From positions 141,256-205,255 of the forward strand of contig JANXAF010000001.1 of assembly GCA_025062045.1 (NCBI GenBank): a DNA stretch of 64,000 nt, in the 5' to 3' direction. The position numbers were made by a program, and so were the translations under genes. The notes beneath the pieces are model-generated. The model was given only the letters and a program-made list of their open reading frames with translations, did no database searches and had not been told where the DNA came from. Shown in pieces: positions 8,925 to 59,830 of the stretch (position 1 is its first letter; every line of letters begins with the position of its first letter). The DNA comes from Thermodesulfobacteriota bacterium (GTDB lineage Bacteria; Desulfobacterota; Syntrophorhabdia; Syntrophorhabdales; JANXAF01).

Positions 8925-9598
8925 CTTCTCTCTCCAAAGATCGCGGTCCCTATTCTTACCATGGTTGCCCCTTCTTCTATTGCCACTTCAAAATCATTGG
9001 ACATGCCCATAGAAAGCTCCTTCATTTCAAGGCCAAATCTTTCATTTGTCCTTTGCAGAATCTCCTTGAGTCTTCTAAAGTACGGCCTTGCCATCTCTGG
9101 ATCTTCAAAATAGGGTGGCATCGTCATAAGCCCAATCGGTTCTATGTTTTCCATCTCTTTGGCCCTCTTTACGAGTTCAAAAAGCTCATCCTCAGTTCTC
9201 GCTCCAAATTTTGTCTCCTCCCCAGATAGGTTTACCTGAAATAGAACTTTAAGCGGTTTTCCAAAAGAATTTAGCAACTCGAGAACCTTTACTCTGTCTA
9301 CAGAATGAACGTACGAAAAGATATCCGGAATGAATTTCACCTTGTTTGTCTGAATATGTCCAATCATATGCCAGGTGACATTCCAATTTTTGAGCATTTC
9401 AGCCTTTTTTTTCGCCTCCTGAACGTAATTTTCGCCAATATCGGTAAGCCCCTCTTCAATGGCAAGAAGAATTCTATTCACATCTATACCTTTTGTTACA
9501 CCAATCAGTTTTACAGTTTTAGGGTCCCTTTTAGACTTTACACAAGCTTTTTCTATTTTATGCCGGACGATTTTGAGTGATTCTCGTACGTCTGTCAC
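8921..9598 (-). CDS. yggS: YggS-family PLP homeostasis protein
   Basis: Single-domain alanine-racemase-N-like fold, LIGVTKG Lys motif, 225 aa. Confidence 0.9.
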
Positions 9599-12197: not shown

Positions 12198-13366
12198 TCG
12201 CTATGTCTAGAAACTTTGCATTGCTTTTCATTTCAAACATTTTTAACTCCTTCGCCTTCTATTTGCTCGTCCCGACCCTTCCCTTGTACTTCCTTTCGGA
12301 CTTAAAGCTGAGTTTCCAAGAGATAGGATATGCGATATCCTCCTTTTCCATCTCTGTCATACTTTTTAGACCGTTTGCCGGTTACCTTGTGGACAGGTTT
12401 AGAAGGACAACTCTTTTAAGATTGACTCTTGTGGCTATAGCCCTCACGTACCTTCTCTATCCCAGAATCCACACATTTTTAGGTATTGTGGCAATTAGAA
12501 TCTTTCACGGGATGCTATTCGGTATAAGTTCATCCGTTCTTTCCGCGGTTGCGGCAGACCTAGGAGGGGATAGAATCGGTCAGGCTATAGCTCTCTACTC
12601 TTTAACGATCCCTTTAGGAATGATGGGCGGGTCCTTTCTTGGGCTTACGATTTTGAAGAGCTCTGGTGCGGAAATTATGTTTCTCTTTACGTTTCTTGTC
12701 TCTCTCATACCGCTTACGCTCTCTTTCTTTTTGAGCAGTCCCAGTGAAGATTCAAAGAAAGGAAGGTTTTTTAGCCTAGCTCACCTTATCTCTTTGGATG
12801 CACTACCTTTCTCAGTTTCCATGATCTTTCCCATGATGGTATACGGCTCAATTAATACCTTTGCGGCCATCCATGCAGAACAGGTCGGTTTTGGTTCTTG
12901 TGAGATCTTTTTCTTTCTTTTTTGTCTCTCCCTTATACTTTCTCGGCTATTTATGGGAAAACTCTTTGACAGTGGGATGATAAAAACGTTGGTTTTAGGA
13001 GGGCTTTTTCTGATCCTTCTTGGGACCCTCACTCTTAGCTTTTCTCATGGTATCTTTTCCTTTTCCATATCAGGGATCCTTTCTGGAGCTGGCTTCGGAA
13101 TCCTTATGCCAACTTGTCAGGCTGCCATAAATGCCATCTCAAGGCCAAACGAACGTGGATCGGCAAACTCGACGTATTTTTTATCTTACGATTTGGGAAT
13201 CGGGCTTAGTTCTTTTATTGTCGGGCACCTTCTCGATACGGCAACAGTGGCGGAAGTGTACAGAATATTTTCTTTTATTATCCCTTTTGCGGCAATCCCT
13301 TTCTTCCTCTTTGCCCTCCCGAGATTCCATATGAAGAAAGGGATTGCCAAACTCCAAACGATTTAG
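12194..13366 (+). CDS. MFS transporter
   Basis: 390 aa with about 12 hydrophobic helices and a loop 2-3 motif GYLVDRFRR. Overlaps the ligase stop by 4 nt. Confidence 0.8.
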   Translation: MIAMSRNFALLFISNIFNSFAFYLLVPTLPLYFLSDLKLSFQEIGYAISSFSISVILFRPFAGYLVDRFRRTTLLRLTLVAIALTYLLYPRIHTFLGIVAIRIFHGMLFGISSSVLSAVAADLGGDRIGQAIALYSLTIPLGMMGGSFLGLTILKSSGAEIMFLFTFLVSLIPLTLSFFLSSPSEDSKKGRFFSLAHLISLDALPFSVSMIFPMMVYGSINTFAAIHAEQVGFGSCEIFFFLFCLSLILSRLFMGKLFDSGMIKTLVLGGLFLILLGTLTLSFSHGIFSFSISGILSGAGFGILMPTCQAAINAISRPNERGSANSTYFLSYDLGIGLSSFIVGHLLDTATVAEVYRIFSFIIPFAAIPFFLFALPRFHMKKGIAKLQTI

Positions 13367-32624: not shown

Positions 32625-33707
32625 ATGAAGATTGCTGTCGGACTAAGTGGGGGTTTTGATTCTTCCATAGCAGCTTATCTTTTGGCAAAGAAAGGATACG
32701 AGCTTATCGGTGTAACCATGAGGATATGGGATGGGAAGATAAGTTGCACTACAAAGAAAAACGCGTGTTACGGGCCGGATGAAGAAAAAGACATAGAATT
32801 TGCACAGAAAATAAGCGAAAAACTCTCCATCCCACACTATGTAATCGATTTAAGAGACGAGTACAGAGAGTTCGTCCTTAATTACTTTTTCCTAGAGTAC
32901 AGAAAAGGAAGAACACCAAATCCCTGTGTTGTGTGTAACTCAAAGATAAAATTCGGGTTTTTGATAGAAAAGGTCCGTTCTTTGGGCCTCGATTTCGATT
33001 GCTTTGCTACGGGACACTACGCACGGATTGAGTTCGATCCGGAAAGGAAAAGATACCATTTAAAGAGGGGTGTCGACGAGCAAAAAGACCAATCCTACTT
33101 TCTCTACAGACTTACTCAAGACCAGTTAAAAACGATTCTATTTCCCCTTGGGGATTTTAGGAAAAATGAGCTAAAAATGAAGGCTTTAGATTTTGGACTG
33201 GAAGAACTTGCAAAAAGAAGGGAAAGCCAGGATTTTTTTGCCGACGATTATAGACTTCTCTTTGAGGACTGTGGCGAACCGGGAAACATAGTCGATGTTT
33301 ACGGTAACGTAATAGGCAGACACAAAGGAATATGCCACTACACTGTAGGTCAAAGGAGGTACCTTAATCTCGCTGGTCTAAAAGAGCCCTATTATGTGCT
33401 AAAAATCGATCCCGAAAGGAACGAGATCGTAGCGGGGCCTAAAAGGTATCTTTTTAGCTCTTCTCTTTTAGCAAAAGATCTTAACTGGCTATTACCTCCA
33501 GAAGAAGTAAAAGGGAAAAAAGTTTTCGCCAAAGTTCGGTCAACAGCAAGGCTTGCCGAATGTACTTTCGATTTTGTAGAAGACATGATTGTTGTTAGAT
33601 TTACCCAACCCCAAGAGGGTATAACACCGGGTCAATCTGTTGTCCTTTACGATGGGGAGGTTGTAATCGGTGGGGGTATTATAGAATCGTATCTAAGCTA
33701 TGAATGA
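32625..33707 (+). CDS. mnmA: tRNA 2-thiouridine(34) synthase
   Basis: PP-loop GLSGGFDSS and catalytic PNPCVVCN. Confidence 0.95.
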   Translation: MKIAVGLSGGFDSSIAAYLLAKKGYELIGVTMRIWDGKISCTTKKNACYGPDEEKDIEFAQKISEKLSIPHYVIDLRDEYREFVLNYFFLEYRKGRTPNPCVVCNSKIKFGFLIEKVRSLGLDFDCFATGHYARIEFDPERKRYHLKRGVDEQKDQSYFLYRLTQDQLKTILFPLGDFRKNELKMKALDFGLEELAKRRESQDFFADDYRLLFEDCGEPGNIVDVYGNVIGRHKGICHYTVGQRRYLNLAGLKEPYYVLKIDPERNEIVAGPKRYLFSSSLLAKDLNWLLPPEEVKGKKVFAKVRSTARLAECTFDFVEDMIVVRFTQPQEGITPGQSVVLYDGEVVIGGGIIESYLSYE

Positions 33708-35293
33708 TGGACATCACAAAAACTGATATAATATCAAAAGCTTTGGTCCGCCTAAAGGGCCTTACAAGTTCTGTTGGAACAAAACTCTTCCTTATCCTCG
33801 TTGCTCTTCTTGCGTTTTCTTTCATAGTAGTCCTCTACCATAATGTTCGAACCTACACGAACCATCTACACGAAAACGTTCTCAAAAATGCCATTCAGAT
33901 AAGCAATATAATAAAGAGCGCCTGTTATCACAGCATGCTGAAAAACGACAGAGAAGGATTGCAGAATATAATCATGAGCGTTGGAAAAGAAGAGGGTATC
34001 GATGCAATAAGGATTTACAACCGGGAAGGAATAATATCTTTTTCGAAGGATAAGGGAGAGATCCACCATGTGGCTGACAAAAGGGCAGAACAGTGCTACG
34101 TCTGCCACAGGGAGGAACCGGCAAAGGGTTTGATTCCAACAAAGGATCTCACAAGGATCCTTGTATCTCCCGAGGGATACAGGCAGCTTGGACTTGTGAA
34201 TCCCATCGAAAATAGTCCGGAATGTTACAATGCGGCTTGCCATGCCCACTCAAAGGATCAGCAGAAACTCGGTTTACTTGATGTCAAACTGTCACTAAAA
34301 AAGATAGATGAAGAAATAGTTCAGACCAAAAGGAGAATGGTCATATACTCTATCCTCCTTATACTTTTTACTGCCCTTCTTAAAGGGGCTTTCATCATTC
34401 TTCTTGTCCACAAGCCCATAAAAAAACTCATAAAAGGCGTAAGAGAGGTGGCAAAACTGAATCTGGATTACAAGGTTGATGTGAAATCGAACGATGAGCT
34501 TGGTGAGCTTGCCGCCTCTTTCAACGAGATGACAAAGGAGTTGAAGAATGCCCAAAACCATCTCATCTTTTCTGAGAGGATGGCCTCTTTAGGTAAAATA
34601 TCGGCCTCTGTTGCGCACGAGATAAATAATCCACTTTCAGGAATACTATCCTACGCAAAACTCACTGCAAGGTTTCTCGAAGAGAACGGCAATGATCCTG
34701 AAAAGATAAAAATGGCGATAGAGAATCTCAAATTTATAAGCGAGGAGAGTAAAAGATGCGGGGAGATAGTGAAGAATCTGCTCCTTTTCTGTAAGAAAAC
34801 CTTTGGTACCATAAGAGGAGAACATCTAAGTACTATAATAGAGAACAGCATAAAGCTCGTGGAGCACAGCGCAAAACTCCAAAAGGTTAAATTTGTAAAG
34901 GAGATAGATACGGAAAACGATATAGTGGTTGTCGATACTGGAGCTATAGAACAGGTTTTTGTCGATCTATTCATAAACGCCATAGAGGCTATGCCAAATG
35001 GTGGAGTGATTAAGGTAAGTACAAAAAACGGAAAGGACGAAATATTGATCACTGTGACAGATACCGGATGTGGTATCCCGGAAAATGTTTTACCCCGTAT
35101 ATTTGAACCTTTTTTCACCACTAAAGACCCAAAAAAGAGCACGGGACTTGGCCTTTGTGTAGTGTATAGTATCATTGAAGATCACGGCGGCAAAATAGAG
35201 GTATCGTCAAAAGTAAACGAAGGAACGACATTCACTATAGTCTTGCCCAGACTTTCGAAGAGATTGCCCAATGAGAAAGGGGGGTTAAGATAG
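33704..35293 (+). CDS. sensor histidine kinase with periplasmic domain carrying two c-type heme-binding motifs, HAMP, HisKA, HATPase
   Basis: TM helices near aa 27-45 and 212-235 flank about 165 aa containing CYVCH (CxxCH, nt 34094..34108) and CYNAACH (Cx4CH, nt 34223..34243). H-box SVAHEINNPL, plus N, G1 and G2 boxes. Confidence 0.9.
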   Translation: MMDITKTDIISKALVRLKGLTSSVGTKLFLILVALLAFSFIVVLYHNVRTYTNHLHENVLKNAIQISNIIKSACYHSMLKNDREGLQNIIMSVGKEEGIDAIRIYNREGIISFSKDKGEIHHVADKRAEQCYVCHREEPAKGLIPTKDLTRILVSPEGYRQLGLVNPIENSPECYNAACHAHSKDQQKLGLLDVKLSLKKIDEEIVQTKRRMVIYSILLILFTALLKGAFIILLVHKPIKKLIKGVREVAKLNLDYKVDVKSNDELGELAASFNEMTKELKNAQNHLIFSERMASLGKISASVAHEINNPLSGILSYAKLTARFLEENGNDPEKIKMAIENLKFISEESKRCGEIVKNLLLFCKKTFGTIRGEHLSTIIENSIKLVEHSAKLQKVKFVKEIDTENDIVVVDTGAIEQVFVDLFINAIEAMPNGGVIKVSTKNGKDEILITVTDTGCGIPENVLPRIFEPFFTTKDPKKSTGLGLCVVYSIIEDHGGKIEVSSKVNEGTTFTIVLPRLSKRLPNEKGGLR

Positions 35294-36637
35294 ATGAAGC
35301 CAAAAGATGTAAGCATCCTTATTGTTGATGACGAACCTTCCATCAGGAACTCTCTTGCGGGCTGGTTCAAAATGGATGGATACAAGACAGAAGTCGCTGA
35401 GGACGCGTATGAAGCTTTAAAAAAACTTCAAGAGAACAATTTCGATATTGCCCTCCTCGACATAAAGATGCCGGAGATGGACGGGATTGAGCTTCAAAGA
35501 AGGATAAAGGAGATAGACAAAAACATAATCACGATAATAATTACTGCATACGCGACAGTAGAGACAGCAATTCAGGCCATGAAAGATGGTGCATTCGACT
35601 ATATCACAAAGCCCATCGATCCTGATGAACTCTCGAGACTCATAAAAAAGGCCATAGAACAGAGGAGACTCATTGCCGAAAATATCATGCTCAGAGGAAA
35701 GATCGAGGAATTACAAAGCCTAGACGAAATAATAGGAGAAAGCCCAGCGATTAAAAAAGTGATGGAGCTTATAAATACAGTTGCGGAGACGGATTCAACG
35801 GTAATGATAAGAGGAGAAAGTGGCACTGGCAAAGAACTCGTAGCAAGAGCAATACATGCTAAAAGCAAAAGGAGATACTTCCCGATTGTCACGATAAACT
35901 GCGGGGCTTACCCGGAGGGACTCTTGGAGAGTGAACTTTTTGGCCATGAAAAAGGTGCTTTTACCGGTGCTCTTTATCAGAGGAAAGGAAAACTCGAGAT
36001 GGCAAATAAAGGTACACTTTTTCTGGATGAAGTCGGAAACATAAGCTTAAAGATGCAGATGGACCTTTTGCGCGTCCTCGAGACGAAGAAGTTCACAAGG
36101 CTTGGCGGCGACAAGGTTATAGAAGCAGATTTTAGGGTTATTTCGGCGACAAACCGTGATCTCGAACAGGCAGTTAGAGAGGGTAGCTTCAGGGAGGACC
36201 TCTATTACAGACTTAACGTTTTTACAATATTCCTTCCTCCTCTGAGGGAGAGAAAGAGCGATATTCCTCTCCTTACATACCATTTCATAAAGAAGTTTTC
36301 GCTCTCAATGAACAAAGACGTAAAAGAGATATCTAAGGAGGCCATGAATCTCCTTATGGACTACGATTGGCCCGGAAATGTAAGGGAGCTAAGAAATGTG
36401 ATCGAGAGGGCAATGGTCAACGTAAAAGGCAGTAGAATTGAAGTCGATGATCTTTACTTTAGCATATCTTCTCCCTATCCCAAGCCTGAAGGAGAGACTC
36501 TCGAAGACGTGGAAAAAGCCCACATAAAGAAGATTCTCAACAAAACGGGATGGAACATCACAAAGGCCGCCGAGATCTTAAACATAGATCGGGTGACCCT
36601 TTATAACAAGATCGAGAAGTACAAACTCAGAAAATAA
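35294..36637 (+). CDS. sigma-54-dependent response regulator (NtrC family: REC-AAA+-Fis HTH)
   Basis: REC (LLDIKMPEMDG), Walker A GESGTGKE, GAFTGA sigma-54 contact loop and a C-terminal Fis-type HTH. Confidence 0.95.
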   Translation: MKPKDVSILIVDDEPSIRNSLAGWFKMDGYKTEVAEDAYEALKKLQENNFDIALLDIKMPEMDGIELQRRIKEIDKNIITIIITAYATVETAIQAMKDGAFDYITKPIDPDELSRLIKKAIEQRRLIAENIMLRGKIEELQSLDEIIGESPAIKKVMELINTVAETDSTVMIRGESGTGKELVARAIHAKSKRRYFPIVTINCGAYPEGLLESELFGHEKGAFTGALYQRKGKLEMANKGTLFLDEVGNISLKMQMDLLRVLETKKFTRLGGDKVIEADFRVISATNRDLEQAVREGSFREDLYYRLNVFTIFLPPLRERKSDIPLLTYHFIKKFSLSMNKDVKEISKEAMNLLMDYDWPGNVRELRNVIERAMVNVKGSRIEVDDLYFSISSPYPKPEGETLEDVEKAHIKKILNKTGWNITKAAEILNIDRVTLYNKIEKYKLRK

Positions 36638-36646: not shown

Positions 36647-37174
36647 ATGCCATCCATATACATAGTGCCGGCGTGGCTTGAGGAGAACCATGATCTCGAA
36701 TTTTTGCGACTCCGCATCTCAGAAGTCTTCAGAAAAAAAACGGTCATATACGAGTCAAAAAAGATAGACTTCCACTCCATCTACAACCCCTCAAGGAAAC
36801 AGTACAACTCGTCCCAGTTTCTAATCCAGCTTCTCAATAACCACCCTAAGGACGCATTAAGAATACTGGGAGTCACAGATGTGGATCTATTCATACCAAT
36901 CCTCACGTTTGTCTTCGGAGAAGCCCAGCTTAACGGGATAGCGGGGGTAGTCTCTGTCCACAGACTGAATAACAAGTTCTACGGGTTACCTGAAAATGAG
37001 GAGCTTTTAAGAAAGAGACTTATAAAAGAGGCCATTCATGAGCTTGGACACACTTATGGCCTCGTCCACTGTCTCACTCCTGGGTGTGTGATGAATTCTT
37101 CCACCTATGTGGAAGACATAGATGAAAAATCTGAGTTTTTCTGTTCTTACTGCTCTTCCGTGATCAGGGGTTAA
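36647..37174 (+). CDS. amzA: archaemetzincin-type zinc metalloprotease
   Basis: HELGHTYGLVHCLTPGCVM...CSYC matches the archaemetzincin signature HExxHxxGx3Cx4CxM...CxxC (x16 here versus x17 in the published pattern). Confidence 0.85.
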   Translation: MPSIYIVPAWLEENHDLEFLRLRISEVFRKKTVIYESKKIDFHSIYNPSRKQYNSSQFLIQLLNNHPKDALRILGVTDVDLFIPILTFVFGEAQLNGIAGVVSVHRLNNKFYGLPENEELLRKRLIKEAIHELGHTYGLVHCLTPGCVMNSSTYVEDIDEKSEFFCSYCSSVIRG

Positions 37175-37863: not shown

Positions 37864-38562
37864 CTACACGTCCTTTGTCATGAAATATTCCTTTACCATC
37901 TCATCCCAGGATTCCGGATTCAAGCTCTTTGCCATTCCAGAGATTGGCAAACCACCATCCTGCAAGAGGTAACCGAGGTTGTAGTTCATTCTGGAAAATA
38001 AACTCTCTTTTAAAGCATCTACCCATCTTATTGCGAGCCGTCCGTTAAGGAGATTTTTTAAATTGGACTTCAAGTTCGGAGAGTAAACCTTAAGTAGCCA
38101 ACCATCGCCGTATGGGTCTTCCGAAAGCTTTTTCGGATTCTTTATCACCTTTTCGTTTATCTCTATTATCTCTCCGTCCAAAGGAGAAAGCATCTTTATC
38201 TCCTTTCCGTCAACAAATAGACTCCAGCCAACTTCCCCTTGGATTATCTCTTCTCCCCTTTTAGGTACCTTTATCGCCTCCACGTTTCCTACAAGTTTTT
38301 GGGCAAAGTCGTCTATTCCAACCCTTGCGATTCTTTCGCCCTCAGGAAAGACCCAAGTGTGTCCCTGGTGGTAGTAAAGGTAATCTGGGATCCTAAAGAG
38401 CCTGCTCATAATCGTCCTTGGCGATTGACTTGGACCTGTGGAGGCTCGGCGGGGTCTTAAGGTCATATAAGAGAAGACCACAAAGGCCGCAAGAAAGAGT
38501 ATCACTAAGATGTACTCGATCCCTTTTGTGGCGAATATGTCGATATAGGTGAATCCTTCCAT
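37864..38562 (-). CDS. N-terminally membrane-anchored GcvH-fold protein
   Basis: TM helix YILVILFLAAFVVFSYMTL followed by RPRR, which predicts a cytoplasmic domain. GcvH-like core VGIDDFAQ...SPLDGEIIEIN...DPYGDGWLLKV. Confidence 0.65.
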   Translation of the reverse strand: MEGFTYIDIFATKGIEYILVILFLAAFVVFSYMTLRPRRASTGPSQSPRTIMSRLFRIPDYLYYHQGHTWVFPEGERIARVGIDDFAQKLVGNVEAIKVPKRGEEIIQGEVGWSLFVDGKEIKMLSPLDGEIIEINEKVIKNPKKLSEDPYGDGWLLKVYSPNLKSNLKNLLNGRLAIRWVDALKESLFSRMNYNLGYLLQDGGLPISGMAKSLNPESWDEMVKEYFMTKDV

Positions 38563-38574: not shown

Positions 38575-39927
38575 TTAATAGTCTCTGTATCTTTGGCCAC
38601 CATTTGCCATTGTAAAACCTAGTTCAGCTTGATACTCCTCCTCTTCGAGCTCTTTTTCCTTCGCCCATTCAGGAACTTCCCCATAGACCGGCATCCTATT
38701 GACGACCCATCTGAAGATCCAAAGCTGAGTAAAAACAATCGTTAAAGTTATAACTATCTCTTGCCACGTAGGTATGTACTTCTCGCTAAGCGGGAGGTAC
38801 CACTTGTAAGCGATCATGGAGTAGTTGATCCTGTTTATTATGACGCCGAGCATCGTTACTAAAGCCGCAACTCTAATGAGATTTATCCTTCTGTCCCTTT
38901 GCCCGTAGTAAAACATAAGGCAAGGAATGAGCACGAACCCTAAAACTTCCACAAGATACCAGATCCCCATGGGGCTTGAGATGTATACCCAGCTCTTTCC
39001 GTGTATGAAGATCAAAACCTTAAGGAAGAAGTACACAAAAAGTGTTATGGCACATCCTCTCGCAAGCCCAATAACTATATCATCGTAGTTTTTGAGATAC
39101 TCCTCAGACATCCTATGTCTGAAAACTTTCTTACTTATGGTCCCCTCAACAATCACACAGGAGAGTCCGGCAAATATACTGGAGACGAAAAAGAGAACCG
39201 GAATGAATTCCGTGTACCAGAGGGGGTGTAACTTATTCTTCGCCATCATAAATAGAGCTCCGAGCCCGGACTGGTGAAGGGTTGAGAGGGCTATTCCAAA
39301 GACGCACGCACCGAGCGTCATAGAGCTTAGAATCTTTCTTAGTCTTTTTAGCTCTAGCCACTCGGCAATGGCAGGAGAAAACTCTATAAACTGTGCGATC
39401 ATGTAAAGGAGAAAGTGCCATGCAACAAGAAAAAGTACTGAATTTACACCGAACTCATTTCCGATAATAGGGTTTAGAATGTTCCATTTCCTTCCTAAGT
39501 CCAAAAATATGGCGGATGCATAAAACACATAGGCCAAAAAACCGTTTAATATGGTCGCTCTCAAAATCGGATGGTATTTTTCGGCGTTAAGGATATAAAC
39601 GACGAATGCTAGGACATAGGCACCACCGGCGAATGGCACTCCAACCATGACGTTAAAACCTATAAATATGCCCCACGGAAAGTCTTGAGAAACGTTACTT
39701 CCGTGGGAGAGTCCGTAAAACATGTGGGTTATGATGAGATAGGTCCCCAAAAGGATAATAGGAAGAGTAATGACGTTAAATGCGGTAAGGACCTTTCCTT
39801 TTGGCTTTAATTCTTTAATGAGAAGTACAAGAAAACCGATGAAGTAAAAGGTTAAGAGAACTAGTTTCGATAACGCTAAAGTGAGACCATTTCTCGCAAT
39901 AGTTATGGATTCAAACTCTTTTCTCAT
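38575..39927 (-). CDS. NrfD/PsrC/HybB-family polytopic membrane (quinone-interacting) subunit
   Basis: 450 aa with about 10 TM helices and an acidic cytoplasmic C-terminal tail. ATGA overlap with the upstream Fe-S gene. Confidence 0.8.
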   Translation of the reverse strand: MRKEFESITIARNGLTLALSKLVLLTFYFIGFLVLLIKELKPKGKVLTAFNVITLPIILLGTYLIITHMFYGLSHGSNVSQDFPWGIFIGFNVMVGVPFAGGAYVLAFVVYILNAEKYHPILRATILNGFLAYVFYASAIFLDLGRKWNILNPIIGNEFGVNSVLFLVAWHFLLYMIAQFIEFSPAIAEWLELKRLRKILSSMTLGACVFGIALSTLHQSGLGALFMMAKNKLHPLWYTEFIPVLFFVSSIFAGLSCVIVEGTISKKVFRHRMSEEYLKNYDDIVIGLARGCAITLFVYFFLKVLIFIHGKSWVYISSPMGIWYLVEVLGFVLIPCLMFYYGQRDRRINLIRVAALVTMLGVIINRINYSMIAYKWYLPLSEKYIPTWQEIVITLTIVFTQLWIFRWVVNRMPVYGEVPEWAKEKELEEEEYQAELGFTMANGGQRYRDY

Positions 39928-40790
39928 CTTTCAATCTCCTTTTTACGTTCCTTAGTTAGGTAATGGATACCTGTGAGAAAAGCAGGCCAAAGGATTAGAA
40001 TCACAGGCACAGAGTAGAGAAAGCCTGTCGTGTATTCCGGATAAGGCGTGTAACCCAGATCCATCTGGAAGTTGAGCTTTTCAAATGGATAAGATGAGAT
40101 GTAGAGAAAGGCTGTGCCTCCGACCTCGTTTTCCCCGTAAATGTAAGGCACGTACAAACCGGGGGTTTGATAGATCCTCTTTTTTGCCTCATTTAAAATA
40201 TCCCTTCTTGTACCGAACGTTAAAGCCTCCTTTGGGCAGACTTCGACACAGGCTGGGACTTTCCCAGAACTTATCCTTCCGTAGCACATATCACACTTCA
40301 TGATCCTACCGAAGGCCTCGTCGTATTCGAATTTCGGTATGTCGAAAGGGCATGAAACCATGCAGTACCTGCAACCCATGCAGTTCTCATCCCAGGTTAC
40401 AGGTCCCTCCTTTCGCTTTTTCATTGCCTTTACAAGACAGGCTGCAACACATCCTGGTTGGTTGCAGTGCATACATTGAATTTTTACGTAGATCTCGCCT
40501 TTTTCTGTTAGGAACCTATTGACAACTGTGAGGGTTTTTTCATCCGGCTTTCTTATCTTTGTGAAGACACTTTTGTCCTCTATGTTTGGAATTGGAAGGG
40601 AGTGGGATTCCGCACAGCTCGCCTCACACGTCCTACAACCTATGCACCTTGTCGTATCGACAAGGACACCGAAAAACTCCTTAGTTTTCGCTTTTATCTC
40701 AGAAGAAAAGACGGTTTTGCTACAAATAGCCGAAGATGCGAAAAGACCAAGTCCCGAGAGGGCCACCTTAAGAAACTCTCGTCTTTTCAT
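39924..40790 (-). CDS. Tat-exported 4x[4Fe-4S] ferredoxin subunit with C-terminal TM anchor (HybA/NrfC/DsrO-like)
   Basis: Twin-arginine signal MKRREFLK. Four Cys clusters (CIGCRTCEASC, CMHCNQPGCVAAC, CMGCRYCMVSCP, CDMC...CVEVCP). C-terminal helix VPVILILWPAFLTGI. Confidence 0.9.
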   Translation of the reverse strand: MKRREFLKVALSGLGLFASSAICSKTVFSSEIKAKTKEFFGVLVDTTRCIGCRTCEASCAESHSLPIPNIEDKSVFTKIRKPDEKTLTVVNRFLTEKGEIYVKIQCMHCNQPGCVAACLVKAMKKRKEGPVTWDENCMGCRYCMVSCPFDIPKFEYDEAFGRIMKCDMCYGRISSGKVPACVEVCPKEALTFGTRRDILNEAKKRIYQTPGLYVPYIYGENEVGGTAFLYISSYPFEKLNFQMDLGYTPYPEYTTGFLYSVPVILILWPAFLTGIHYLTKERKKEIER

Positions 40791-41022
40791 CCTCTGCCTC
40801 CTCTTTTTCTTGAACTTTCTCTCCCCCGTCTGCTAGTGTGAAACCGAGCTCAGGAGTGTAAAACAGCGACTTTTCTCTAAGTTTTACTTCCATGGCCTTT
40901 TTTGTCGGATATAGACCCATAAAGAATAGATGCCATGCGAGATACCCGAAAATGAGCCCAAGGATCAATCCACCCCCCAAAAGAAGGACTGGGTAAATTT
41001 CTATGAATCTTCCGGCTTCCAT
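40768..41022 (-). CDS. 84-aa single-pass membrane protein with acidic tail
   Basis: GGAGGTGA SD 5 nt upstream of the ATG. One TM helix followed by basic residues. Carries the ELGFTLADGG motif shared with the NrfD-like C-terminus. 23-nt overlap with the next gene. Confidence 0.6.
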   Translation of the reverse strand: MEAGRFIEIYPVLLLGGGLILGLIFGYLAWHLFFMGLYPTKKAMEVKLREKSLFYTPELGFTLADGGEKVQEKEEAEDEKTRVS

Positions 41023-41052
41023 AAACTCACCTCCTTTCTAACTTATAAATTG

Positions 41053-41067
41053 GCAATATGCGTGCCA
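41053..41067 (-). promoter_or_regulatory. sigma-54 (-24/-12) promoter
   Basis: Minus strand reads TGGCAC-GCATA-TTGC (TGGCAC = 41067..41062, TTGC = 41056..41053), an exact match to TGGCAC-N5-TTGC. It lies 31 nt upstream of the ATG at 41022. Confidence 0.7.
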
Positions 41068-41159
41068 AACTTTTTGCTTTTCTCCCCTTCTGCTAACTAT
41101 TTGGTATTATTTGGGTTTTTTGAAAGAGTGTGGAAAAAATCAAAAGAAGGATTTATTAG

Positions 41160-41202
41160 ATCGTTGAATTTTTCAACGATGGGCTATTGAATTTTTCAAC
41201 GA
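41160..41202. promoter_or_regulatory. tandem palindromic enhancer-like (UAS) sites
   Basis: A perfect 21-bp palindrome ATCGTTGAA-TTT-TTCAACGAT (41160..41180). An exact 16-nt repeat of its core, TTGAATTTTTCAACGA, occurs at 41187..41202. Centres are 23 bp apart and about 104 and 127 bp upstream of the -24 element. Confidence 0.55.
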
Positions 41203-41414
41203 CTCGTGGATAGGTCCAATTCGTATCCTTCCGACTCAATAGCTCGTTTTAATGCCTCTAAATCTATTTCACCCTCGTACGTTACTTTTAGTGTTTCGGT
41301 CTCTACATTTGCCTCACACGCGATCACATTTTTTATCCGTTTTACGGCAGATTCGATCCTTCTTTCGCAATGACTACATCCCATGCCTTTTACTTGCAGG
41401 GTAATCGTTTTCAT
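41196..41414 (-). CDS. copZ: copper chaperone CopZ (HMA domain)
   Basis: 72 aa with the GMGCSHC metal-binding loop. Confidence 0.9.
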   Translation of the reverse strand: MKTITLQVKGMGCSHCERRIESAVKRIKNVIACEANVETETLKVTYEGEIDLEALKRAIESEGYELDLSTSR

Positions 41415-43867
41415 CTTCTTACTCCCAGATTGAGTGCTTTTATTCTCAAAGAATTGAGTACCACAAAAAGCGAGCTCAATGTCATCGCAAAGGAAGCATA
41501 AAGAGGTTTAAGTAGGATCTGAAACGTTGGATAGAATAGACCTGATGCGCACGGTATAAGAAGGACATTATAGAAAAAAGCCCAAAAAAGGTTTTCTTTT
41601 ACTATTTTATTCGTCTTTCTGGAGAGCTTTAAAAATCTCACTATGCCCCTTAAGTCCTCGTTTATGAGGATTACGTCAGACGTTTGAGCAGCGATATCCG
41701 TTCCCTTACCCATCGCGAATCCCAAATCAGAAAGGCTAAGGGCAGGAGCATCATTTATACCATCTCCCACCATCGCAACCTTATATCCTCTCTTTTTGAG
41801 ATCTTCAACTTTTAAAGACTTCTCATGGGGAAGCATATCTCCAAAGACTTCATCTATATTTGCTCTTTTAGCAAAGATTTTAGCCACATTCATGCTATCT
41901 CCAGTGAGAAGACCGATTCTTATCCCCATCTTTTTAAGTTCCGAAATAGTCTCAATCGATTCCTCTCTTAGCGTGTCCCCTATGGCTATAAAACCGGCAA
42001 GAATCCCATCAATTGCTACACAAAGACAAGTACTTCCGTCACCTGTTAGCCTTTCATAAACCTCTCTGTGAGGTTCTATTTCCACGCCCATTCTTTTTGC
42101 AAAAGATAGACTGCCAACTAGTACCTTTTTTGAAGTAACTTCTCCTATCAACCCTTCACCAGGAACGTAACTGAATGACTCCGGTTCAGAAAGAAAAAGA
42201 TTTCTTGCCATGGCGTATCTCACAATGGCACGTCCTAAAGGATGTTCAGAGTTCTTCTCAAGGGACCCTGCAATGGCAACGATCTCTTCCTCTTCAAACC
42301 CATTTACAGGAAAGACCGTCTTTACTTCCACTTTACCGTAAGTTAGAGTTCCCGTCTTGTCGATGAGTACGTAATTTATCTTTTTTGCCGAATCAAAAGC
42401 TTCCCCGTTTCTTACTAGGATTCCATACTCTGCCGCCTTTGAACTGGCCACAAAGATCGCAATCGGAGTTGCGAGACCCAAAGCGCAAGGACAAGCAACG
42501 ATGAGTACCGAAACGAAAATCATAAGCGAAAAAGAAGCCGGATATCCCGAAGTAAGCCAGACTAGAAAAGAAAAAAAGGCAATAAAAAAAACGGTGGGCA
42601 CAAAAATACTTGCTATCTTATCAGCCAGGGCTTGGACAGGTGCTTTTCGGGCTTGAGCCCTTTTTACCATCTCCACAATTTGGGAAAGAAGCGTATCCTT
42701 GCCGATTCTTTGCACCTTTAACTTGAATGCTCCTAAAAGGTTGAGACTCGAAGCGTAAACCCAATCCCCAGTCTTCTTCTCTTTAGGTATGGCTTCTCCT
42801 GTAATCGAAGACTCATCTAGTGTACCATACCCGTCTATTATCAGCCCATCTACAGGGATCCTCTCTCCTGGCCTCACAAGTAGTACGTCTTCTTCTTTTA
42901 TCTCCTTTAAAGGGACCTCTTTTATCTTTCCGTCTCTTATAACGGTTGCTTTTTTGGGTAGTAGTGAGGCCAGTCTTCTTATTGCCTCGTACGCTCTTTT
43001 TTTTGCCTTAAGTTCAAGAAGTCTTCCAAAGAGTACAAGCGTTATTATTACGGCACATGTCTCATAGTAAACATCGAGTGGTGGTGAACCTTTTTTTATA
43101 TATGGAAAAAAAGTATTGAAGGAACTGTATAGGTAAGCTGAACCACTACCCACCGAGATGAGCGCGTTCATATCGAATGAGAGATGCTTTGCGGAGCGCA
43201 AAAATGCGAAGAGAAATCCGCTTCCGCCGTAAAAAAAGATGGGCGTTGTGAGAAAAAAAAGGGCAAGGTTTATGCTCTGTCTGTCAAAGCTCATAAAAAA
43301 GAAGTGAAGAAACATATCCGAAAGGACAAAGAAAGTAAGAATAGCTGAAAGAACGAGTCTTTTTTTTAGTCGTTTCTTTTCTTTTTCTTTTTTTACTTCC
43401 TCGAATGATTCTACATCCTCATCCTCGATATGAAGAATTGAGAGTCCAAGATCGGTCAAAATCTTTTTCACATCTTCGAGAGAGACAATTGTCGGCACAA
43501 ACTCTACGGTTATTTCCTCTGCTAAGGGATTGACATGGACATACGTAATTCCGATCTTACTTTTAAGCCTTTTATCTATGATATCAAAAGCCGGGATCAT
43601 CGATAGTCCCTGAACAGGTATCACCGCTTTGTTTGTTTCAACCTCATAACCTAAATCTTTCACGGTTTTTATTATCTTTTCGAGCAACTCTCGAGAAAAT
43701 TCTTTGGCCTCTACGGTTGCCCTTTCCAAAACGAGATTCAACGAAACTCTTTCTAACTCCTTTATCTTCGAAAGGCTATCCTCTATTCTTTTCACACATG
43801 CAGAACAGGTCATACCGGATATTGGGATTATGAGTATTTGTGTCCCTTCTTGAGCCACCCGGTTCAT
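41411..43867 (-). CDS. copA: copper-translocating P1B-type ATPase
   Basis: HMA GMTCSAC, a second HMA-like repeat lacking the Cys pair (GLSMIPAF), TM CPC, DKTGTLT and GDGINDAP. ATG at 43867 chosen, because the TTG at 43912 would read through the hcp terminator. Confidence 0.9.
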   Translation of the reverse strand: MNRVAQEGTQILIIPISGMTCSACVKRIEDSLSKIKELERVSLNLVLERATVEAKEFSRELLEKIIKTVKDLGYEVETNKAVIPVQGLSMIPAFDIIDKRLKSKIGITYVHVNPLAEEITVEFVPTIVSLEDVKKILTDLGLSILHIEDEDVESFEEVKKEKEKKRLKKRLVLSAILTFFVLSDMFLHFFFMSFDRQSINLALFFLTTPIFFYGGSGFLFAFLRSAKHLSFDMNALISVGSGSAYLYSSFNTFFPYIKKGSPPLDVYYETCAVIITLVLFGRLLELKAKKRAYEAIRRLASLLPKKATVIRDGKIKEVPLKEIKEEDVLLVRPGERIPVDGLIIDGYGTLDESSITGEAIPKEKKTGDWVYASSLNLLGAFKLKVQRIGKDTLLSQIVEMVKRAQARKAPVQALADKIASIFVPTVFFIAFFSFLVWLTSGYPASFSLMIFVSVLIVACPCALGLATPIAIFVASSKAAEYGILVRNGEAFDSAKKINYVLIDKTGTLTYGKVEVKTVFPVNGFEEEEIVAIAGSLEKNSEHPLGRAIVRYAMARNLFLSEPESFSYVPGEGLIGEVTSKKVLVGSLSFAKRMGVEIEPHREVYERLTGDGSTCLCVAIDGILAGFIAIGDTLREESIETISELKKMGIRIGLLTGDSMNVAKIFAKRANIDEVFGDMLPHEKSLKVEDLKKRGYKVAMVGDGINDAPALSLSDLGFAMGKGTDIAAQTSDVILINEDLRGIVRFLKLSRKTNKIVKENLFWAFFYNVLLIPCASGLFYPTFQILLKPLYASFAMTLSSLFVVLNSLRIKALNLGVRR

Positions 43868-43897
43868 AAAAAAAGGGACGGAGGGTAGCCCTCCGTC
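43868..43897 (-). terminator. rho-independent terminator after hcp
   Basis: Minus strand reads GACGGAGGG-cta-CCCTCCGTC followed by CCTTTTTTT. The 9-bp GC-rich stem occupies 43877..43897 and the T7 run 43868..43874. The T-run leads directly into the copA ATG. Confidence 0.7.
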
Positions 43898-43902
43898 TAA
43901 AA

Positions 43903-45537
43903 TCAGACACAAGAAAGCATAGCTTTCACATCTTCTTCCGCAGAAGAGATCGGTTTTAGATCGAACCTTTCAACTATCATCTTTCCGACACGGGGAGAGA
44001 TAAAAGCAGGCAGTGTCGGGCCAAGCCTAATACCTTTAAAACCGAGATACAAAAGGGCAAGAAGGACACTTACCGCTTTCTGTTCATACCAGGCGATATC
44101 AAAAGAAATTGGTAGGCTATCTAGGTCCGAAAACCCAAGTAACTCCTTAAGTTTAAGCGCCACATATGCCAAGGAGTAGGAATCGTTACACTGGCCCGCA
44201 TCGATCACTCTTGGTATACCCTTTATATCACCGAGGGGTAAGGTGTTGTATCTGAATTTGGCGCACCCCGCAGTAAGTATCACTGTGTCTTTAGGCAAAA
44301 TCTTTGCGACTTCCGTAAAGTACTCCCTCGTCTTATGCCTTCCATCACAACCCGCCATCACTACGAATCTCTTTATATCTCCGGATTTTAAAAGATCCAA
44401 AATCCTATCCGCAAAAGATAGGATCTGATTGTGACCGAATCCTCCATAGATTTTTTTATCCTTTAACGGCTTTGGAGGAGAACATCTCTTAGCCACCTCA
44501 ATTATCTTTGTGAAATCTTTAGGCTTTCCATCTTCTCTGTCCGGGATGTGAATAGCCCCCGGATAGCTTACGGGACCTAGTGTGAATAACCTAGAAAGAT
44601 AGGTATTTTCCTTTCTTAGTGGGATTAAGCAGTTCGTTGTGGCAAGAATAGGTCCATTGAAGGATTCAAACTCGTCGTTTTGAGCTGGCCACGAACCTCC
44701 ATAGTTACCTATAAGATTTTTGAATTTTTTGAAGACAGGATAGAAGTGGGCTGGGAGCATCTCTCCGTGTGTGTAAACGTCTATGTTTTCACCCTGTGTC
44801 TGCTCAAGAAGCTCGTACAGATCTTTTAGATCGTGCCCTGTAATTAGGATCCCAGGGTTTGAGCCAACTTTTGTTTTTACTTCCGTAAACTCCGGGTGCC
44901 CGAAAGTCTTCGTATTTGCTTCATCAAGCAAAGCGATAGTTTTGACTGCAATCTCCCCGGTTTTTACAACAAGGGAGAAAAGTTCCTCTTCTTTTAGTTC
45001 CTTCGTTAGAGATGCCAAACCCTCAACTATGAAATTGTAAATTTCGTCACTCTCATAACCAAGATTCGCAGCATGTTCTGCATAAGCCGAAATACCCTTT
45101 ATTCCGAATGTGATTAGGGACTTTAAGGATCTTACGTCTTCATCGGGAATCGAGTTTATCCGAACTTCAAAAGAGGATGCTTTTTCTTTGATATCCTCCT
45201 TTTTATCAGCCGACCATGTCGCACAGTCAGGAAGATCAGTAAGTGGGGACTTTAGTTTTCCTTTTAAAGAATCGCGCAATCTCAGCCCCTCTTTTATCCT
45301 CTCGATTATAATTTCATCATCCCATCCCACATTGGTAAGTGTTGTAAAAAGGGCCCGACATAGAAACCTACCTATCTCTCGATCCAACTTTTCGAGTCTT
45401 GAAGCGTAAATGCTTATCCCCTTGCAAACGTAAATTAGAAGATCCTGTAAGTTCGCTGTAGTTTCGGTCTTGCCGCAAACTCCTCTCGTCGTGCAAGCTA
45501 CGTTCTTTGCCGTCTCCTGACACTGAAAACAAAACAT
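43903..45537 (-). CDS. hcp: hybrid-cluster protein / hydroxylamine reductase
   Basis: N-terminal MFCFQCQET...C...GVCGK cluster motif, 544 aa. Confidence 0.95.
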   Translation of the reverse strand: MFCFQCQETAKNVACTTRGVCGKTETTANLQDLLIYVCKGISIYASRLEKLDREIGRFLCRALFTTLTNVGWDDEIIIERIKEGLRLRDSLKGKLKSPLTDLPDCATWSADKKEDIKEKASSFEVRINSIPDEDVRSLKSLITFGIKGISAYAEHAANLGYESDEIYNFIVEGLASLTKELKEEELFSLVVKTGEIAVKTIALLDEANTKTFGHPEFTEVKTKVGSNPGILITGHDLKDLYELLEQTQGENIDVYTHGEMLPAHFYPVFKKFKNLIGNYGGSWPAQNDEFESFNGPILATTNCLIPLRKENTYLSRLFTLGPVSYPGAIHIPDREDGKPKDFTKIIEVAKRCSPPKPLKDKKIYGGFGHNQILSFADRILDLLKSGDIKRFVVMAGCDGRHKTREYFTEVAKILPKDTVILTAGCAKFRYNTLPLGDIKGIPRVIDAGQCNDSYSLAYVALKLKELLGFSDLDSLPISFDIAWYEQKAVSVLLALLYLGFKGIRLGPTLPAFISPRVGKMIVERFDLKPISSAEEDVKAMLSCV

Positions 45538-47778: not shown

Positions 47779-48529
47779 TCTTTTTTCTCCTTCCATGTTC
47801 GAATTGAGGATCGTAGAGTTTCGACCTGCCATAGGTTGGTCTTAGGACATCTCCGACTATTATGAGAGCGTGTTTTGTGATTCCATGAAGTTTCACTTTT
47901 TCGGAGATGTCCTTTAAAGTTCCGGTCAATATTTTTTGATCTGGCCACGTTACCCTTTGAATAACTGCACATGGGGTGCCATCGCTCAATCCGGCTCTTT
48001 TAAGTTTAGATACGACCTTTTCTATTTCGTGGACGCTTAAAAAAAGAACGATTGTGGCCTTGCTTTTAGCTAAAACCTCTAAATCTTGGGACTCTAAAAC
48101 GGAAGTCCTTCCGCCTATCCTTGTAATTATGACTGTCTGGCTTACGTCGGGTAGGGTCAGTTCTCTCTTTAATGCACTGGAGGCGGCTTGAAATGAGCTT
48201 ACTCCCGGAATAAGCTCATAGTCTATCCCTTCTTTTTCACATGCGTTTATCTGTTCCTGCAGCGCACTGTAAATCGAGAGATCGCCGCTATGAAGCCTTA
48301 CGACCTTCTTCCCTTCCCTTATAGATCTTTTTATAACTTCGATTATCTCTTCCAAAGTCATCTTAGACGAGTCAAATATCTCTGCGCCCTCTTTTGCAAA
48401 CGAAAGAATATCAGGATTAACGAGAGATCCGGCATAGATTATGGTATCAGCCTCCTCTAAAACCTTCCTACCTTTTATCGTCAAAAGCTCTGGGTCTCCT
48501 GGTCCTGCACCAACGAAGTAAACTTTCAT
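47750..48529 (-). CDS. cbiF: cobalt-precorrin-4 (C11)-methyltransferase
   Basis: MKVYFVGAGPGDPELLT N-terminus, 259 aa. Confidence 0.9.
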   Translation of the reverse strand: MKVYFVGAGPGDPELLTIKGRKVLEEADTIIYAGSLVNPDILSFAKEGAEIFDSSKMTLEEIIEVIKRSIREGKKVVRLHSGDLSIYSALQEQINACEKEGIDYELIPGVSSFQAASSALKRELTLPDVSQTVIITRIGGRTSVLESQDLEVLAKSKATIVLFLSVHEIEKVVSKLKRAGLSDGTPCAVIQRVTWPDQKILTGTLKDISEKVKLHGITKHALIIVGDVLRPTYGRSKLYDPQFEHGRRKKSEPRNHSYK

Positions 48530-53107: not shown

Positions 53108-53179
53108 AGCCGATGGTGGGATTTGAACCCACGACCTGCTCATTACGAGTGAGCTGCTCTTCCACTGAGCCACATCGGC
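53108..53179 (-). tRNA. tRNA-Thr (anticodon CGU)
   Basis: Hand-folded cloverleaf. Acceptor GCCGATG/CATCGGC, D-arm GCTC/GAGC, anticodon stem GCTCA/TGAGC with loop CT-CGT-AA, T-arm GTGGG-TTCAAAT-CCCAC. CCA is not encoded. Confidence 0.9.
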
Positions 53180-57924: not shown

Positions 57925-58853
57925 AACGGGTCCTTTTTTTCGTCCTTTCTGTGTTTTTTACCCTTTTTCCTTTCGCTTTTACGGCCGGTGAGATCATAGA
58001 CAGGATCGTTGCCGTAGTGAACGATGACATAATCACATTAAAAGAGGTGGAGCAGTTCGTACACGTCGAAAAAAAAGAGAGATTTAAGTCAGTTGATGAT
58101 TACGTTTTAGGTCTTAGACTTCGAGATAAGCTTGAAATCCTCATAGAAGGTACCCTCATCAAACAACAGGCAAAAAAGATGAAGATTGACGTTTCAGAAA
58201 AAGAAGTACAAGCGGTAATCGAAAACATAAAGAGGCAGAATTTGATAACAGAAGACGAATTAAAAGAACAGCTAAGGCGTGAAAACATAACCTATGAGGA
58301 CTTTATAAAAGGTATAAAATTGAGCCTCCTTAGAAATAAGGTTCTCGCTAGGGTCATAACTCCTGAAATTAACCTTTCGGAAAAGGATTTGATGGACTAT
58401 TACAAAAATCATCCGGAGGAGTTTACAGACGAGGAGATCCACATCCACCAAATCTTTATCTCTGGCCTACGGGAGGATTCGAAGGAGAGAGCAAAAAGAG
58501 TTTATGAGTCGATAAAGGAGGGAGTTCCGTTCGAGGAACTTGCGAAAACGTACTCGGACGATCCCTCAGGTAAGTACGGCGGCGACGTTGGGTTTGTAAA
58601 AAAGGGAGATCTGATGCCAGAACTCGGTGAAGCTTTGAAAGGATTGAAGGAGGGAGAGTATACGGGGATCGTCCAGTCCCGCTACGGCTTCCACATACTG
58701 AAAGTAGTGGAAAGGAAAAAAGGTGAGATAGAACCCTTCGAGAATGTAAAGGATGAAATTAGAAAAAGACTCATAATGAGGGAGTCGGAAAAAAGATACA
58801 AGGATTACATAGAGAAACTTAAAAAGAATTCCTACATAGAGGTTAAGCTTTGA
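57921..58853 (+). CDS. SurA-like periplasmic chaperone / PPIase
   Basis: Signal peptide, SurA N-terminal domain (DRIVAVVNDDIIT) and one parvulin domain (HIHQIF...YGFHILKV). Immediately upstream of pdxA, as surA-pdxA is in E. coli. Confidence 0.85.
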   Translation: MKRVLFFVLSVFFTLFPFAFTAGEIIDRIVAVVNDDIITLKEVEQFVHVEKKERFKSVDDYVLGLRLRDKLEILIEGTLIKQQAKKMKIDVSEKEVQAVIENIKRQNLITEDELKEQLRRENITYEDFIKGIKLSLLRNKVLARVITPEINLSEKDLMDYYKNHPEEFTDEEIHIHQIFISGLREDSKERAKRVYESIKEGVPFEELAKTYSDDPSGKYGGDVGFVKKGDLMPELGEALKGLKEGEYTGIVQSRYGFHILKVVERKKGEIEPFENVKDEIRKRLIMRESEKRYKDYIEKLKKNSYIEVKL

Positions 58854-59830
58854 TTAGGATACTCGTTTCGATGGGTGACCCTTCTGGGGTAGGAAGCGAA
58901 ATAATACTTAAATCGATTCCCAAGATAAAAAAGAGGAGCATCCCTGTTATTGTTGGCGACTTGGAGGTTTTAAAAGAGACAGGGAGAATACTCGGGATGG
59001 ATATTTCCAATTTGTTCTTGCCTTACATGGAGGGCAAAAAGGGAGATGTGGAACTTATAGACCTAGGTCTTCTAAAAGATGTAAGGTACGGTCTTGTTAA
59101 TAAGGATTACGGGTACGCGGCTTACCAGTACGTTTTTGAGGGGTTAAAGCGGGTTCTAAACGGGGAAGTTTATGGCATAGTTACCTGCCCCATAAACAAG
59201 AAGTCCTTCGAGCTTGCAAACATCCAATTTACCGGGCATACCGAGATGCTTGGCCGGCTGGCTGGTGTTAATGACTACGTCATGATGCTGCAGAATAGAA
59301 AAATGAGGGTCTCACTTGTTACAACCCACGTTCCTTTTAAGGAAGTACCGAACCTACTATCGGTCGAAAGGGTCTTCAAGACCATATACATAACCCACAG
59401 ATCTCTTGTAGAACTATTCAATATCGATTCGCCTAATTTAAAAGTTTGCGGATTAAACCCACACGCGGGAGAAGAAGGCCTTATAGGAGATGAGGAGCAC
59501 ATAATCGTAGAGGCCATAGAAAGAGCAAAAAACCTAAATATTATTGTTTCAGGTCCGTATCCTGCAGATTCTGTCTTTTCAAAAATTGACTGTGATGCTT
59601 ACGTATCAATGTACCACGATCAGGGACTCATTCCACTAAAGACCATTGACTTCAAAAGAACCGTGAACGTTACACTTGGTCTTCCATTCGTTAGGACATC
59701 CCCCGGTCACGGTACGGCTTTCGATATAGCCGGTAGAGGGATTGCCGATCCTACAAGCTTTATTGAAGCCTACCTTTTAGCTGAGAAGCTTACAAAAAAC
59801 CTTTTGACAAAGTCTCACGATAAGGATTAA
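58850..59830 (+). CDS. pdxA: 4-hydroxythreonine-4-phosphate dehydrogenase
   Basis: GDPSGVG, GLNPHAGE and YHDQGLIP motifs. Confidence 0.95.
   Translation: MIRILVSMGDPSGVGSEIILKSIPKIKKRSIPVIVGDLEVLKETGRILGMDISNLFLPYMEGKKGDVELIDLGLLKDVRYGLVNKDYGYAAYQYVFEGLKRVLNGEVYGIVTCPINKKSFELANIQFTGHTEMLGRLAGVNDYVMMLQNRKMRVSLVTTHVPFKEVPNLLSVERVFKTIYITHRSLVELFNIDSPNLKVCGLNPHAGEEGLIGDEEHIIVEAIERAKNLNIIVSGPYPADSVFSKIDCDAYVSMYHDQGLIPLKTIDFKRTVNVTLGLPFVRTSPGHGTAFDIAGRGIADPTSFIEAYLLAEKLTKNLLTKSHDKD

Follow-up and report, generated by a model that had tools for sequence, protein, structure and literature searches.

A predicted sigma-54 promoter with three upstream dyad sites ahead of an HmcBC-like and GcvH-like operon, and the neighboring two-component system as its candidate regulator

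Introduction

Sigma-54 promoters need an enhancer-binding activator for transcription. At the enteric glnAp2 promoter, NtrC acts from tandem dyads, strong and weaker, located ~100-150 bp upstream of a TGGCAC-N5-TTGC element, and in the AtoC and ZraR systems paired inverted repeats lie upstream of a sigma-54 promoter, a logic that recurs at the locus described here. NtrC4 of Aquifex aeolicus reportedly binds two upstream dyad sites through its Fis-like domain. In the anaerobe Desulfovibrio vulgaris, the activator OrpR, sigma-54 polymerase, and integration host factor (IHF) jointly control the orp operons (PMC8359166). Here we analyze a 64,000-nucleotide stretch of contig JANXAF010000001.1 from a Thermodesulfobacteriota bacterium (assembly GCA_025062045.1), referred to in full length as the window, and a region within it, 41027..41201, that precedes an operon encoding an 84-aa protein, an NrfC/HmcB-like protein, an NrfD/HmcC-like protein, and two GcvH-like proteins. 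We consider it probable (roughly 85%), from sequence comparison, that this region is the sigma-54/enhancer control region of the operon and that an activator encoded next to the operon acts on its three dyads. The three palindromes are most likely bound by this neighboring two-component regulator.

This assignment draws on the sequence elements themselves, on how far they exceed chance, on how well they are conserved, and on their occurring together with the orthologous activator. Comparison was made with 88 related loci, of which 8 came from a genome scan with the NrfD-like protein and 80 were kept from at least 540 relatives found in a metagenome scan with an alignment; the window proteins were searched by tblastn against all 89 sequences (705 kb). 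The NrfD-like protein has no exact match on record; its closest genome match, in an unclassified metagenome bin, is 73% identical, and the closest relative among the loci, L001, encodes an NrfD 73% identical to that of the window.

Results

The elements of the proposed regulatory system are as follows (L001 and L010 are related loci).

41053..41067, minus strand: sigma-54 promoter, -24/-12 element TGGCACGCATATTGC, recognized by sequence and present as an identical 15-mer in L001
41041, minus strand: predicted transcription start, with the C of the GC element (41053) taken as -12 and the start 12 nt downstream
41027..41034, minus strand: ribosome-binding site GGAGGTGA, recognized by sequence and invariant in the alignment of the window with L001 and L010
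41185..41201: predicted enhancer site 1 (distal dyad), minus-strand CGTTGAAAAATTCAATA, center about -152, conserved in L001 and L010
41162..41178: predicted enhancer site 2, perfect dyad CGTTGA-N5-TCAACG, core of the 21-bp palindrome at 41160..41180, center about -129
41129..41145: predicted enhancer site 3 (weak proximal dyad), minus-strand TTTTGATTTTTTCCACA, center about -96
41094..41106, minus strand: IHF-like sequence TACCAAATAGTTA between enhancer and promoter, one mismatch to WATCAANNNNTTR, tentative
35294..36637, plus strand: candidate activator, with Pfam domains Response_reg, Sigma54_activat (GAFTGA), and HTH_8, a Fis-type helix-turn-helix
33704..35293, plus strand: candidate cognate sensor histidine kinase, with Pfam domains HAMP, HisKA, and HATPase_c, syntenic with the activator

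The minus strand reads TGGCAC (41067..41062), GCATA, and TTGC (41056..41053), exactly as a preliminary description of this DNA had it, and the GG at 41066/41065 and GC at 41054/41053 are exactly 10 bp apart, the spacing that characterizes the sigma-54 class. A pattern scan of both strands of the 64-kb window found no second exact match to TGGCACN5TTGC, extending to the whole window what the preliminary description had said of the intergenic regions it covered. The mean number of exact matches expected by chance is 0.02 per window, and 2 of 100 dinucleotide shuffles contained any match. Tolerating one mismatch adds a single match, at 47967, within an open reading frame (ORF), and we detected no other convincing sigma-54 promoter in the window, all relaxed matches lying inside ORFs. 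The element at 41053..41067 is intergenic, on the correct strand, and ends 31 nt 5′ of the ATG at 41022, with the ribosome-binding site in between: downstream of it the minus strand continues with GAAAGGAGGTGA and then the ATG, a sequence and ATG position that agree with the earlier account. This ATG (41022..41020) is the start of an 84-aa ORF (40768..41022, minus strand) that overlaps the NrfC-like gene. The start is predicted at 41041 because the standard -24/-12 numbering was applied to the sequence, and it would imply a leader of ~19 nt. The only terminator-like hairpin called in this region, at 41050..41068 on the plus strand, is nothing other than the -24/-12 element, in which TTGGCA/TGCCAA forms an accidental inverted repeat; it was rejected as a plus-strand terminator, as no plus-strand gene ends there.

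Upstream of the promoter, the 21-bp palindrome ATCGTTGAA-AAA-TTCAACGAT (41180..41160; arms of 9 bp) and an exact 16-nt copy of its core (41187..41202), 23 bp from the palindrome, were both recovered with the positions and spacing reported previously. Where 0.36 occurrences of TTGAANNNTTCAA would be expected, the window has three, two of them being the palindrome and its copy. The TGA stop codon (41198..41196) of copZ, an upstream gene on the same strand, lies inside the distal copy and is overlapped by site 1. The centers of sites 1, 2, and 3 (-152, -129, and -96, counted from the predicted start at 41041) lie ~128, 105, and 72 bp upstream of the -24 GG, which places all three dyads in the range of ~70-200 bp upstream where an enhancer arrangement calls for two or more. 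Sites 1 and 2 are 23 bp apart, and site 3 is 33 bp further downstream.

The sites were ranked with a leave-clade-out position matrix derived from 63 sites in loci other than the window, L001, and L010. Among the ~64,000 positions of the window, site 2 ranked first, site 1 second, and site 3 fourth. The two palindromes that had been proposed as paired enhancer-like sites are therefore the top two positions by a matrix taken from other lineages, and the count of two has to be amended, the weaker third dyad at 41129..41145 having been overlooked. Site 2 is conserved in L001 and L010, both of which also keep the block TTGA..T.TC.ACA of site 3. The outer dyad positions in the window's clade are CGT...ACG, not TGT...ACA. 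The third-ranking position, TGTAGAACTATTCAATA at 59407..59423, lies inside an ORF (58850..59830) with neither a partner site nor a -24/-12 element nearby and is probably a chance match. The DNA between the sites and the promoter contains A/T tracts and the IHF-like sequence at 41106..41094, which the preliminary description had not remarked on; the corresponding element in L001 is a perfect match (AATCAAATAGTTA), and the block CAAATAGTTA is common to the window and L001.

When the window is aligned with L001 and L010, the spacers prove to have diverged, and the three dyads, the -24/-12 element, and the ribosome-binding site together with the ATG stand out as the invariant blocks. The 15-mer TGGCACGCATATTGC is found in L001 upstream of its homolog of the 84-aa gene, L010 carries TGGCACGGGAATTGC as its -24/-12 element, and L003 carries TGGCCCGATGTTTGC as a -24/-12-like element. 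The deltaproteobacterial loci L004, L007, and L083 have TGGCAT-N5-TTGC. Taking as a -24/-12-like element any sequence scoring at least 8 of 9.5 and situated no more than 260 bp downstream of a dyad cluster, we detected a TGGCAY-N5-TTG(C/G/A) element downstream of the cluster in 37 of 42 loci, compared with 6% of random windows of 240 bp, and 0.6% of such random windows score 9 or more. Bacteroidales-type loci (L002, L005, L006, and L041-L085) keep TGGCAY at -24, examples being TGGCACTGTTATTGG and TGGCATTGTATTTGG.

The dyads are likewise found well beyond the window's own group. Pairs of TGTTGA-N5-TCAACA are visible in the raw upstream regions of L001, L004, L005, L006, and L007, and with up to two mismatches this pattern occurs 150 times in the 705 kb of the 89 loci, compared with 22-43 times in block shuffles. 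The loci contain 31 clusters of at least two dyads, whereas individual shuffles have 0-2 and the expectation from shuffling is about 0.25; 28 of these clusters are positioned 200-2300 bp upstream of NrfC. A search for the palindrome upstream of orthologous operons, which had been suggested as a check, thus finds its dyad family clustered there in many lineages. Dyad sites are present in each of the 23 loci where the orthologous activator is accompanied by at least 2.1 kb of upstream DNA, and 15 of these loci have two or more at the strict threshold. Dyads followed by a promoter element were found in none of the four equally assessable loci that lack the orthologous activator and the GcvH-like genes (L008, L024, L027, and L087). 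The spacing of the pairs follows lineage: paired sites are 23 bp apart in the group of the window and in several others, whereas deltaproteobacterial loci have a spacing of 22 bp and Bacteroidales-type loci one of 19 bp. Related loci have additional sites closer to the promoter, and across loci the dyad sites are placed 50-220 bp upstream of the sigma-54 promoter. A second dyad pair of the type TG(C/T)TGA-N5-TCAACA followed by TGGCACACAT(A/T)TTGT is found downstream of the operon in L004 (~13138-13310) and L083 (~8921-9085), preceding a gene for a small membrane protein (L004 13427-13741). In this second unit, sites and promoter are again found together, independently of the first, suggesting that these deltaproteobacterial genomes have a second regulon member.

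The location of the palindromes at the end of copZ admits a different explanation, in which they serve only as an RNA hairpin (a terminator or stabilizer) closing the copA-copZ transcript at its 3′ end and are unrelated to the operon, a possibility already allowed for in the preliminary description. The copZ stop codon does lie within the distal repeat, the minus-strand RNA is predicted to fold at -22.5 kcal/mol (z = -4.4 relative to shuffles), and a U-rich stretch begins ~13 nt past the stem. The fold is not independent evidence, however, because any DNA palindrome folds as RNA; the stem is A/T-rich, with two G-C pairs of nine, and has no abutting U-tract, and a pattern scan called no minus-strand terminator in 40500..41700. 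The same dyads are found in L001, whose copA has no copZ after it, and in L004, L007, and L083, where the upstream gene is the divergent activator gene; the half-site sequence, moreover, is kept in different phyla, a constraint that a hairpin would not impose. We regard a hairpin-only function as highly improbable because the sites persist at these last three loci, where no gene converges on them. Alongside enhancer function, the palindromes may have a secondary terminator role in this genome.

The candidate activator has both the GAFTGA motif and the receiver aspartate expected of an NtrC-type protein. It is encoded among plus-strand genes convergent with the operon (mnmA, the histidine kinase, the regulator, and an archaemetzincin-family protein). 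The window encodes no sigma-54 activator besides this one, and no second GAFTGA protein was found in it. The orthologs of the candidate are 55-93% identical and syntenic with the operon across phyla. The recognition helix (I/V)DR(V/A)TLYNKI is conserved in every ortholog, again across phyla, and the unrelated activators of L024 and L026 have LSR(P/S)RLYALLK at this position. The earlier nomination of this neighboring NtrC-family regulator is strengthened by its being alone in the window, by synteny, by the conserved helix, and by the sites in 23 of 23 loci. At 33704..33707 the start codon of the kinase gene and the mnmA stop overlap, and the order mnmA, kinase, activator, M54 (the archaemetzincin-family gene) is kept in L001. 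The two-component genes may be cotranscribed with mnmA, a housekeeping tRNA-modification gene, because of this overlap and the kept order. Upstream of the two-component genes we saw neither dyad sites nor a -24/-12 element.

The dyads could instead be operators of another DNA-binding protein encoded elsewhere in the genome, the synteny of the activator being coincidental or reflecting some other role. The literature searched does not associate TGTTGA-N5-TCAACA with any named regulator, and the divergent outer positions of the dyads in the window's clade also favor such a protein. This explanation would have to accommodate the joint presence of sites and orthologous activator in every assessable locus, the lack of promoter-followed sites in the subfamily with other regulators, and a recognition helix conserved in step with the motif. 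The sites also precede a sigma-54 promoter by 50-220 bp; a promoter of this class requires an activator of exactly this type, and the window encodes no other. We therefore consider another DNA-binding protein quite improbable and retain the neighboring activator as the candidate.

Several observations weigh against assigning 41027..41201 to sigma-54 and this activator. Site 1 has one degenerate half and lies partly within the copZ coding sequence; site 3 is weak, with two mismatches, and the unpaired coding-region site at 59407 scores slightly above it. The IHF-like element is absent in L010, and its assignment is therefore tentative. In the Bacteroidales-type loci the -12 part is TTGG or TTGA rather than TTGC, which may be a lineage-specific preference. 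Eight of the 23 assessable loci have a single site at the strict threshold, and the further sites that a matrix scan finds in them come from a matrix derived from the same sites. No RpoN-box protein was found in the window, and rpoN is only implied for the genome, through the presence of the GAFTGA activator. Finally, a sigma-70-like sequence, TCCACA-17-AATAAT (41134..41106), matches at 9 of 12 positions and overlaps site 3.

This last sequence raises the possibility that the -24/-12 match is fortuitous and that a sigma-70 promoter such as this one, or read-through from copZ, accounts for transcription of the operon. A similar TCTACA-17-TAAAAT can be read in L001, and copA-copZ lie on the same strand with no clear terminator. 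Such sigma-70-like matches are nevertheless at chance level (2 found, 1.8 expected), and the one in question is lost in L010, its -35 part coinciding with the conserved half of site 3. The exact sigma-54 match, by contrast, has a chance expectation of 0.02 per window. It is unchanged in L001 and conserved in L010, and distant lineages show it again at a fixed position with respect to the sites. A fortuitous -24/-12 match is accordingly very unlikely, and sigma-54 remains the preferred assignment for this promoter.

The operon and the genes around it comprise the following features.

40768..41022, minus strand: first operon gene, encoding an 84-aa protein with one hydrophobic helix and a C-terminal LGFTLADGGE motif
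39924..40790, minus strand: NrfC/HmcB-like 4Fe-4S subunit; Pfam Fer4_11; best NCBIfam model HmcB, 335 bits against a cut-off of 420
38575..39927, minus strand: NrfD/HmcC-like integral membrane subunit; Pfam NrfD; best NCBIfam model HmcC, 390 bits against a cut-off of 550
37864..38562, minus strand: GcvH-like protein type 1; Pfam GCV_H; ~230 aa with an N-terminal hydrophobic helix
37171..37863, minus strand: GcvH-like protein type 2; Pfam GCV_H; ~230 aa with a Cys-rich N terminus
36647..37174, plus strand: archaemetzincin-family (M54) protein, by Pfam, NCBIfam, and synteny
41196..41414, minus strand: copZ, HMA CopZ by Pfam, with TGA stop at 41198..41196
41411..43912, minus strand: copA, P-type ATPase; the TTG start listed overlaps the end of hcp
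43903..45537, minus strand: hcp, hybrid-cluster protein

Pfam and NCBIfam agree with the gene identities proposed earlier from the sequence (4Fe-4S NrfC-like, NrfD-like, two GCV_H proteins, HMA CopZ, P-type ATPase, regulator, and HAMP kinase). The 84-aa protein has no match in Pfam or NCBIfam and has homologs of 50-54% identity in L001, L009, and L010. Of the two GcvH-like paralogs, type 1 retains a lysine near the lipoyl position, and type 2 has a C-x6-C-x2-C N terminus and an arginine replacing the lysine; both end in a conserved QDGG motif. A similar motif, LG-x-x-x-x-DGG, occurs in the 84-aa protein and in the small membrane protein of L004, and the form LG-x-T-x-x-DGGE is common to the window's 84-aa protein and the small membrane protein of L004/L083. 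The stop codons of the convergent M54 gene (plus strand) and last GcvH-like gene (minus strand) overlap by 4 bp (37171..37174), leaving, therefore, no space for a terminator between the two operons. Rfam models matched a single feature in the window, a tRNA at 53108..53179, and nothing in the promoter region.

A cluster of NrfC-like, NrfD-like, and one to three GcvH-like genes together with the orthologous kinase, activator, and M54 genes recurs in ~35 loci, in several gene orders; these loci are labeled Bacteroidales, deltaproteobacterial, or unclassified. In every case the M54 gene comes immediately after the activator gene. The Spirochaetota locus L008 has the kinase and no full-length orthologous activator, and a subfamily without GcvH-like genes has other regulators (L021-L027, L031, L032, L034, L044, and L087). 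The first gene of the operon varies by lineage: the window's group has the 84-aa single-helix protein, deltaproteobacterial and Spirochaetota loci have a cytochrome c3-like protein (L004 8500-8952; L007 2940-3461; L008 8500-8967), and Bacteroidales-type loci have a ~560-aa fusion of a periplasmic-binding-protein-like domain with GcvH (L002 7353-9047; L005 7320-8999). Upstream of the promoter, hcp, copA, and copZ lie on the same strand as the operon. A regulatory link to copper was considered and dropped: copA is adjacent in the window and L001, and because cop genes are absent from all other loci, the association of copA with the redox operon looks incidental.

Discussion

From the sequence comparison, and from established knowledge of NtrC-type activators, we infer binding, phosphorylation control, looping, and the start site in the following scheme. 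Sigma-54 RNA polymerase would bind the -24/-12 element (41067..41053) and remain in a closed complex. The histidine kinase (33704..35293) would sense a signal and phosphorylate the receiver of the activator (35294..36637), dimers of which would occupy the three dyads of the TGTTGA-N5-TCAACA family, two strong and one weaker, and assemble an active AAA+ ring; three dimers would equal one hexamer. Bent A/T-tract DNA, possibly with IHF at 41106..41094, would loop the ring onto the polymerase, and ATP hydrolysis would open the promoter for transcription from near 41041.

The promoter architecture is of a well-known kind and teaches nothing new about sigma-54. Its value lies in the assignment of regulator, operator, and target for an activator family without a named equivalog, since the site motif, the promoter, and the activator are conserved together in Bacteroidales, deltaproteobacterial, and unclassified lineages. 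The defined 17-bp motif offers a practical entry to an abundant and unstudied membrane redox module of HmcBC-like and GcvH-like proteins. A broader proposal, to which we give even odds, is that the promoter and dyads are the operator set of an undescribed multi-phylum two-component sigma-54 regulon (kinase, activator, and archaemetzincin-like protein) dedicated to an uncharacterized quinone-linked HmcBC-like module. If this is true, the partners of the module would be the membrane-anchored and Cys-rich GcvH-like proteins and the small LG-x-x-x-x-DGG proteins, and the motif would be a handle for defining the regulon and its inducing signal.

The regulon under this promoter appears to be undescribed. 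Our literature search returned no paper combining NrfD with GcvH and none combining archaemetzincin with sigma-54, a search for GcvH-like proteins with HmcB, HmcC, or NrfCD returned nothing relevant, and a search for the motif strings returned primer-type matches only. A paper on the sigma-54 regulome of Desulfovibrio does not mention the motif or the cluster genes.

Among curated NCBIfam families, the activator scores best with AtoC (479 bits) and ZraR (421 bits), and the kinase with AtoS and ZraS. The activator falls far short of the equivalog cut-offs of 714 (AtoC) and 760 (ZraR), and with 421 bits against a cut-off of 559 for the NtrC model it is not an NtrC equivalog either; because its scores fall below these cut-offs, it is, by sequence, an NtrC-type response regulator outside every named equivalog. 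OrpR of D. vulgaris differs from the window's activator in that it is described as a redox sensor acting via an iron-sulfur cluster rather than a receiver (PMC8359166). The closest solved structures are those of A. aeolicus NtrC1/NtrC4 (4L4U, 1NY5, and 3DZD; E = 2e-115 to 1e-104 over the full length), a likeness in sequence, and the regulated genes and site sequences differ. The AtoS/AtoC and ZraS/ZraR systems of Escherichia coli share the domain order of the window's kinase and activator, whereas the targets here are HmcBC-like and GcvH-like genes rather than ato or zraP. Finally, as with NtrC at glnAp2, an activator with receiver, AAA+, and Fis-type helix-turn-helix domains is paired with a kinase and with tandem dyads upstream of a sigma-54 promoter; unlike at glnAp2, the dyad is TGTTGA-N5-TCAACA, the spacing of the strong sites is 23 bp instead of about three helical turns, and the target is a redox operon rather than nitrogen assimilation.

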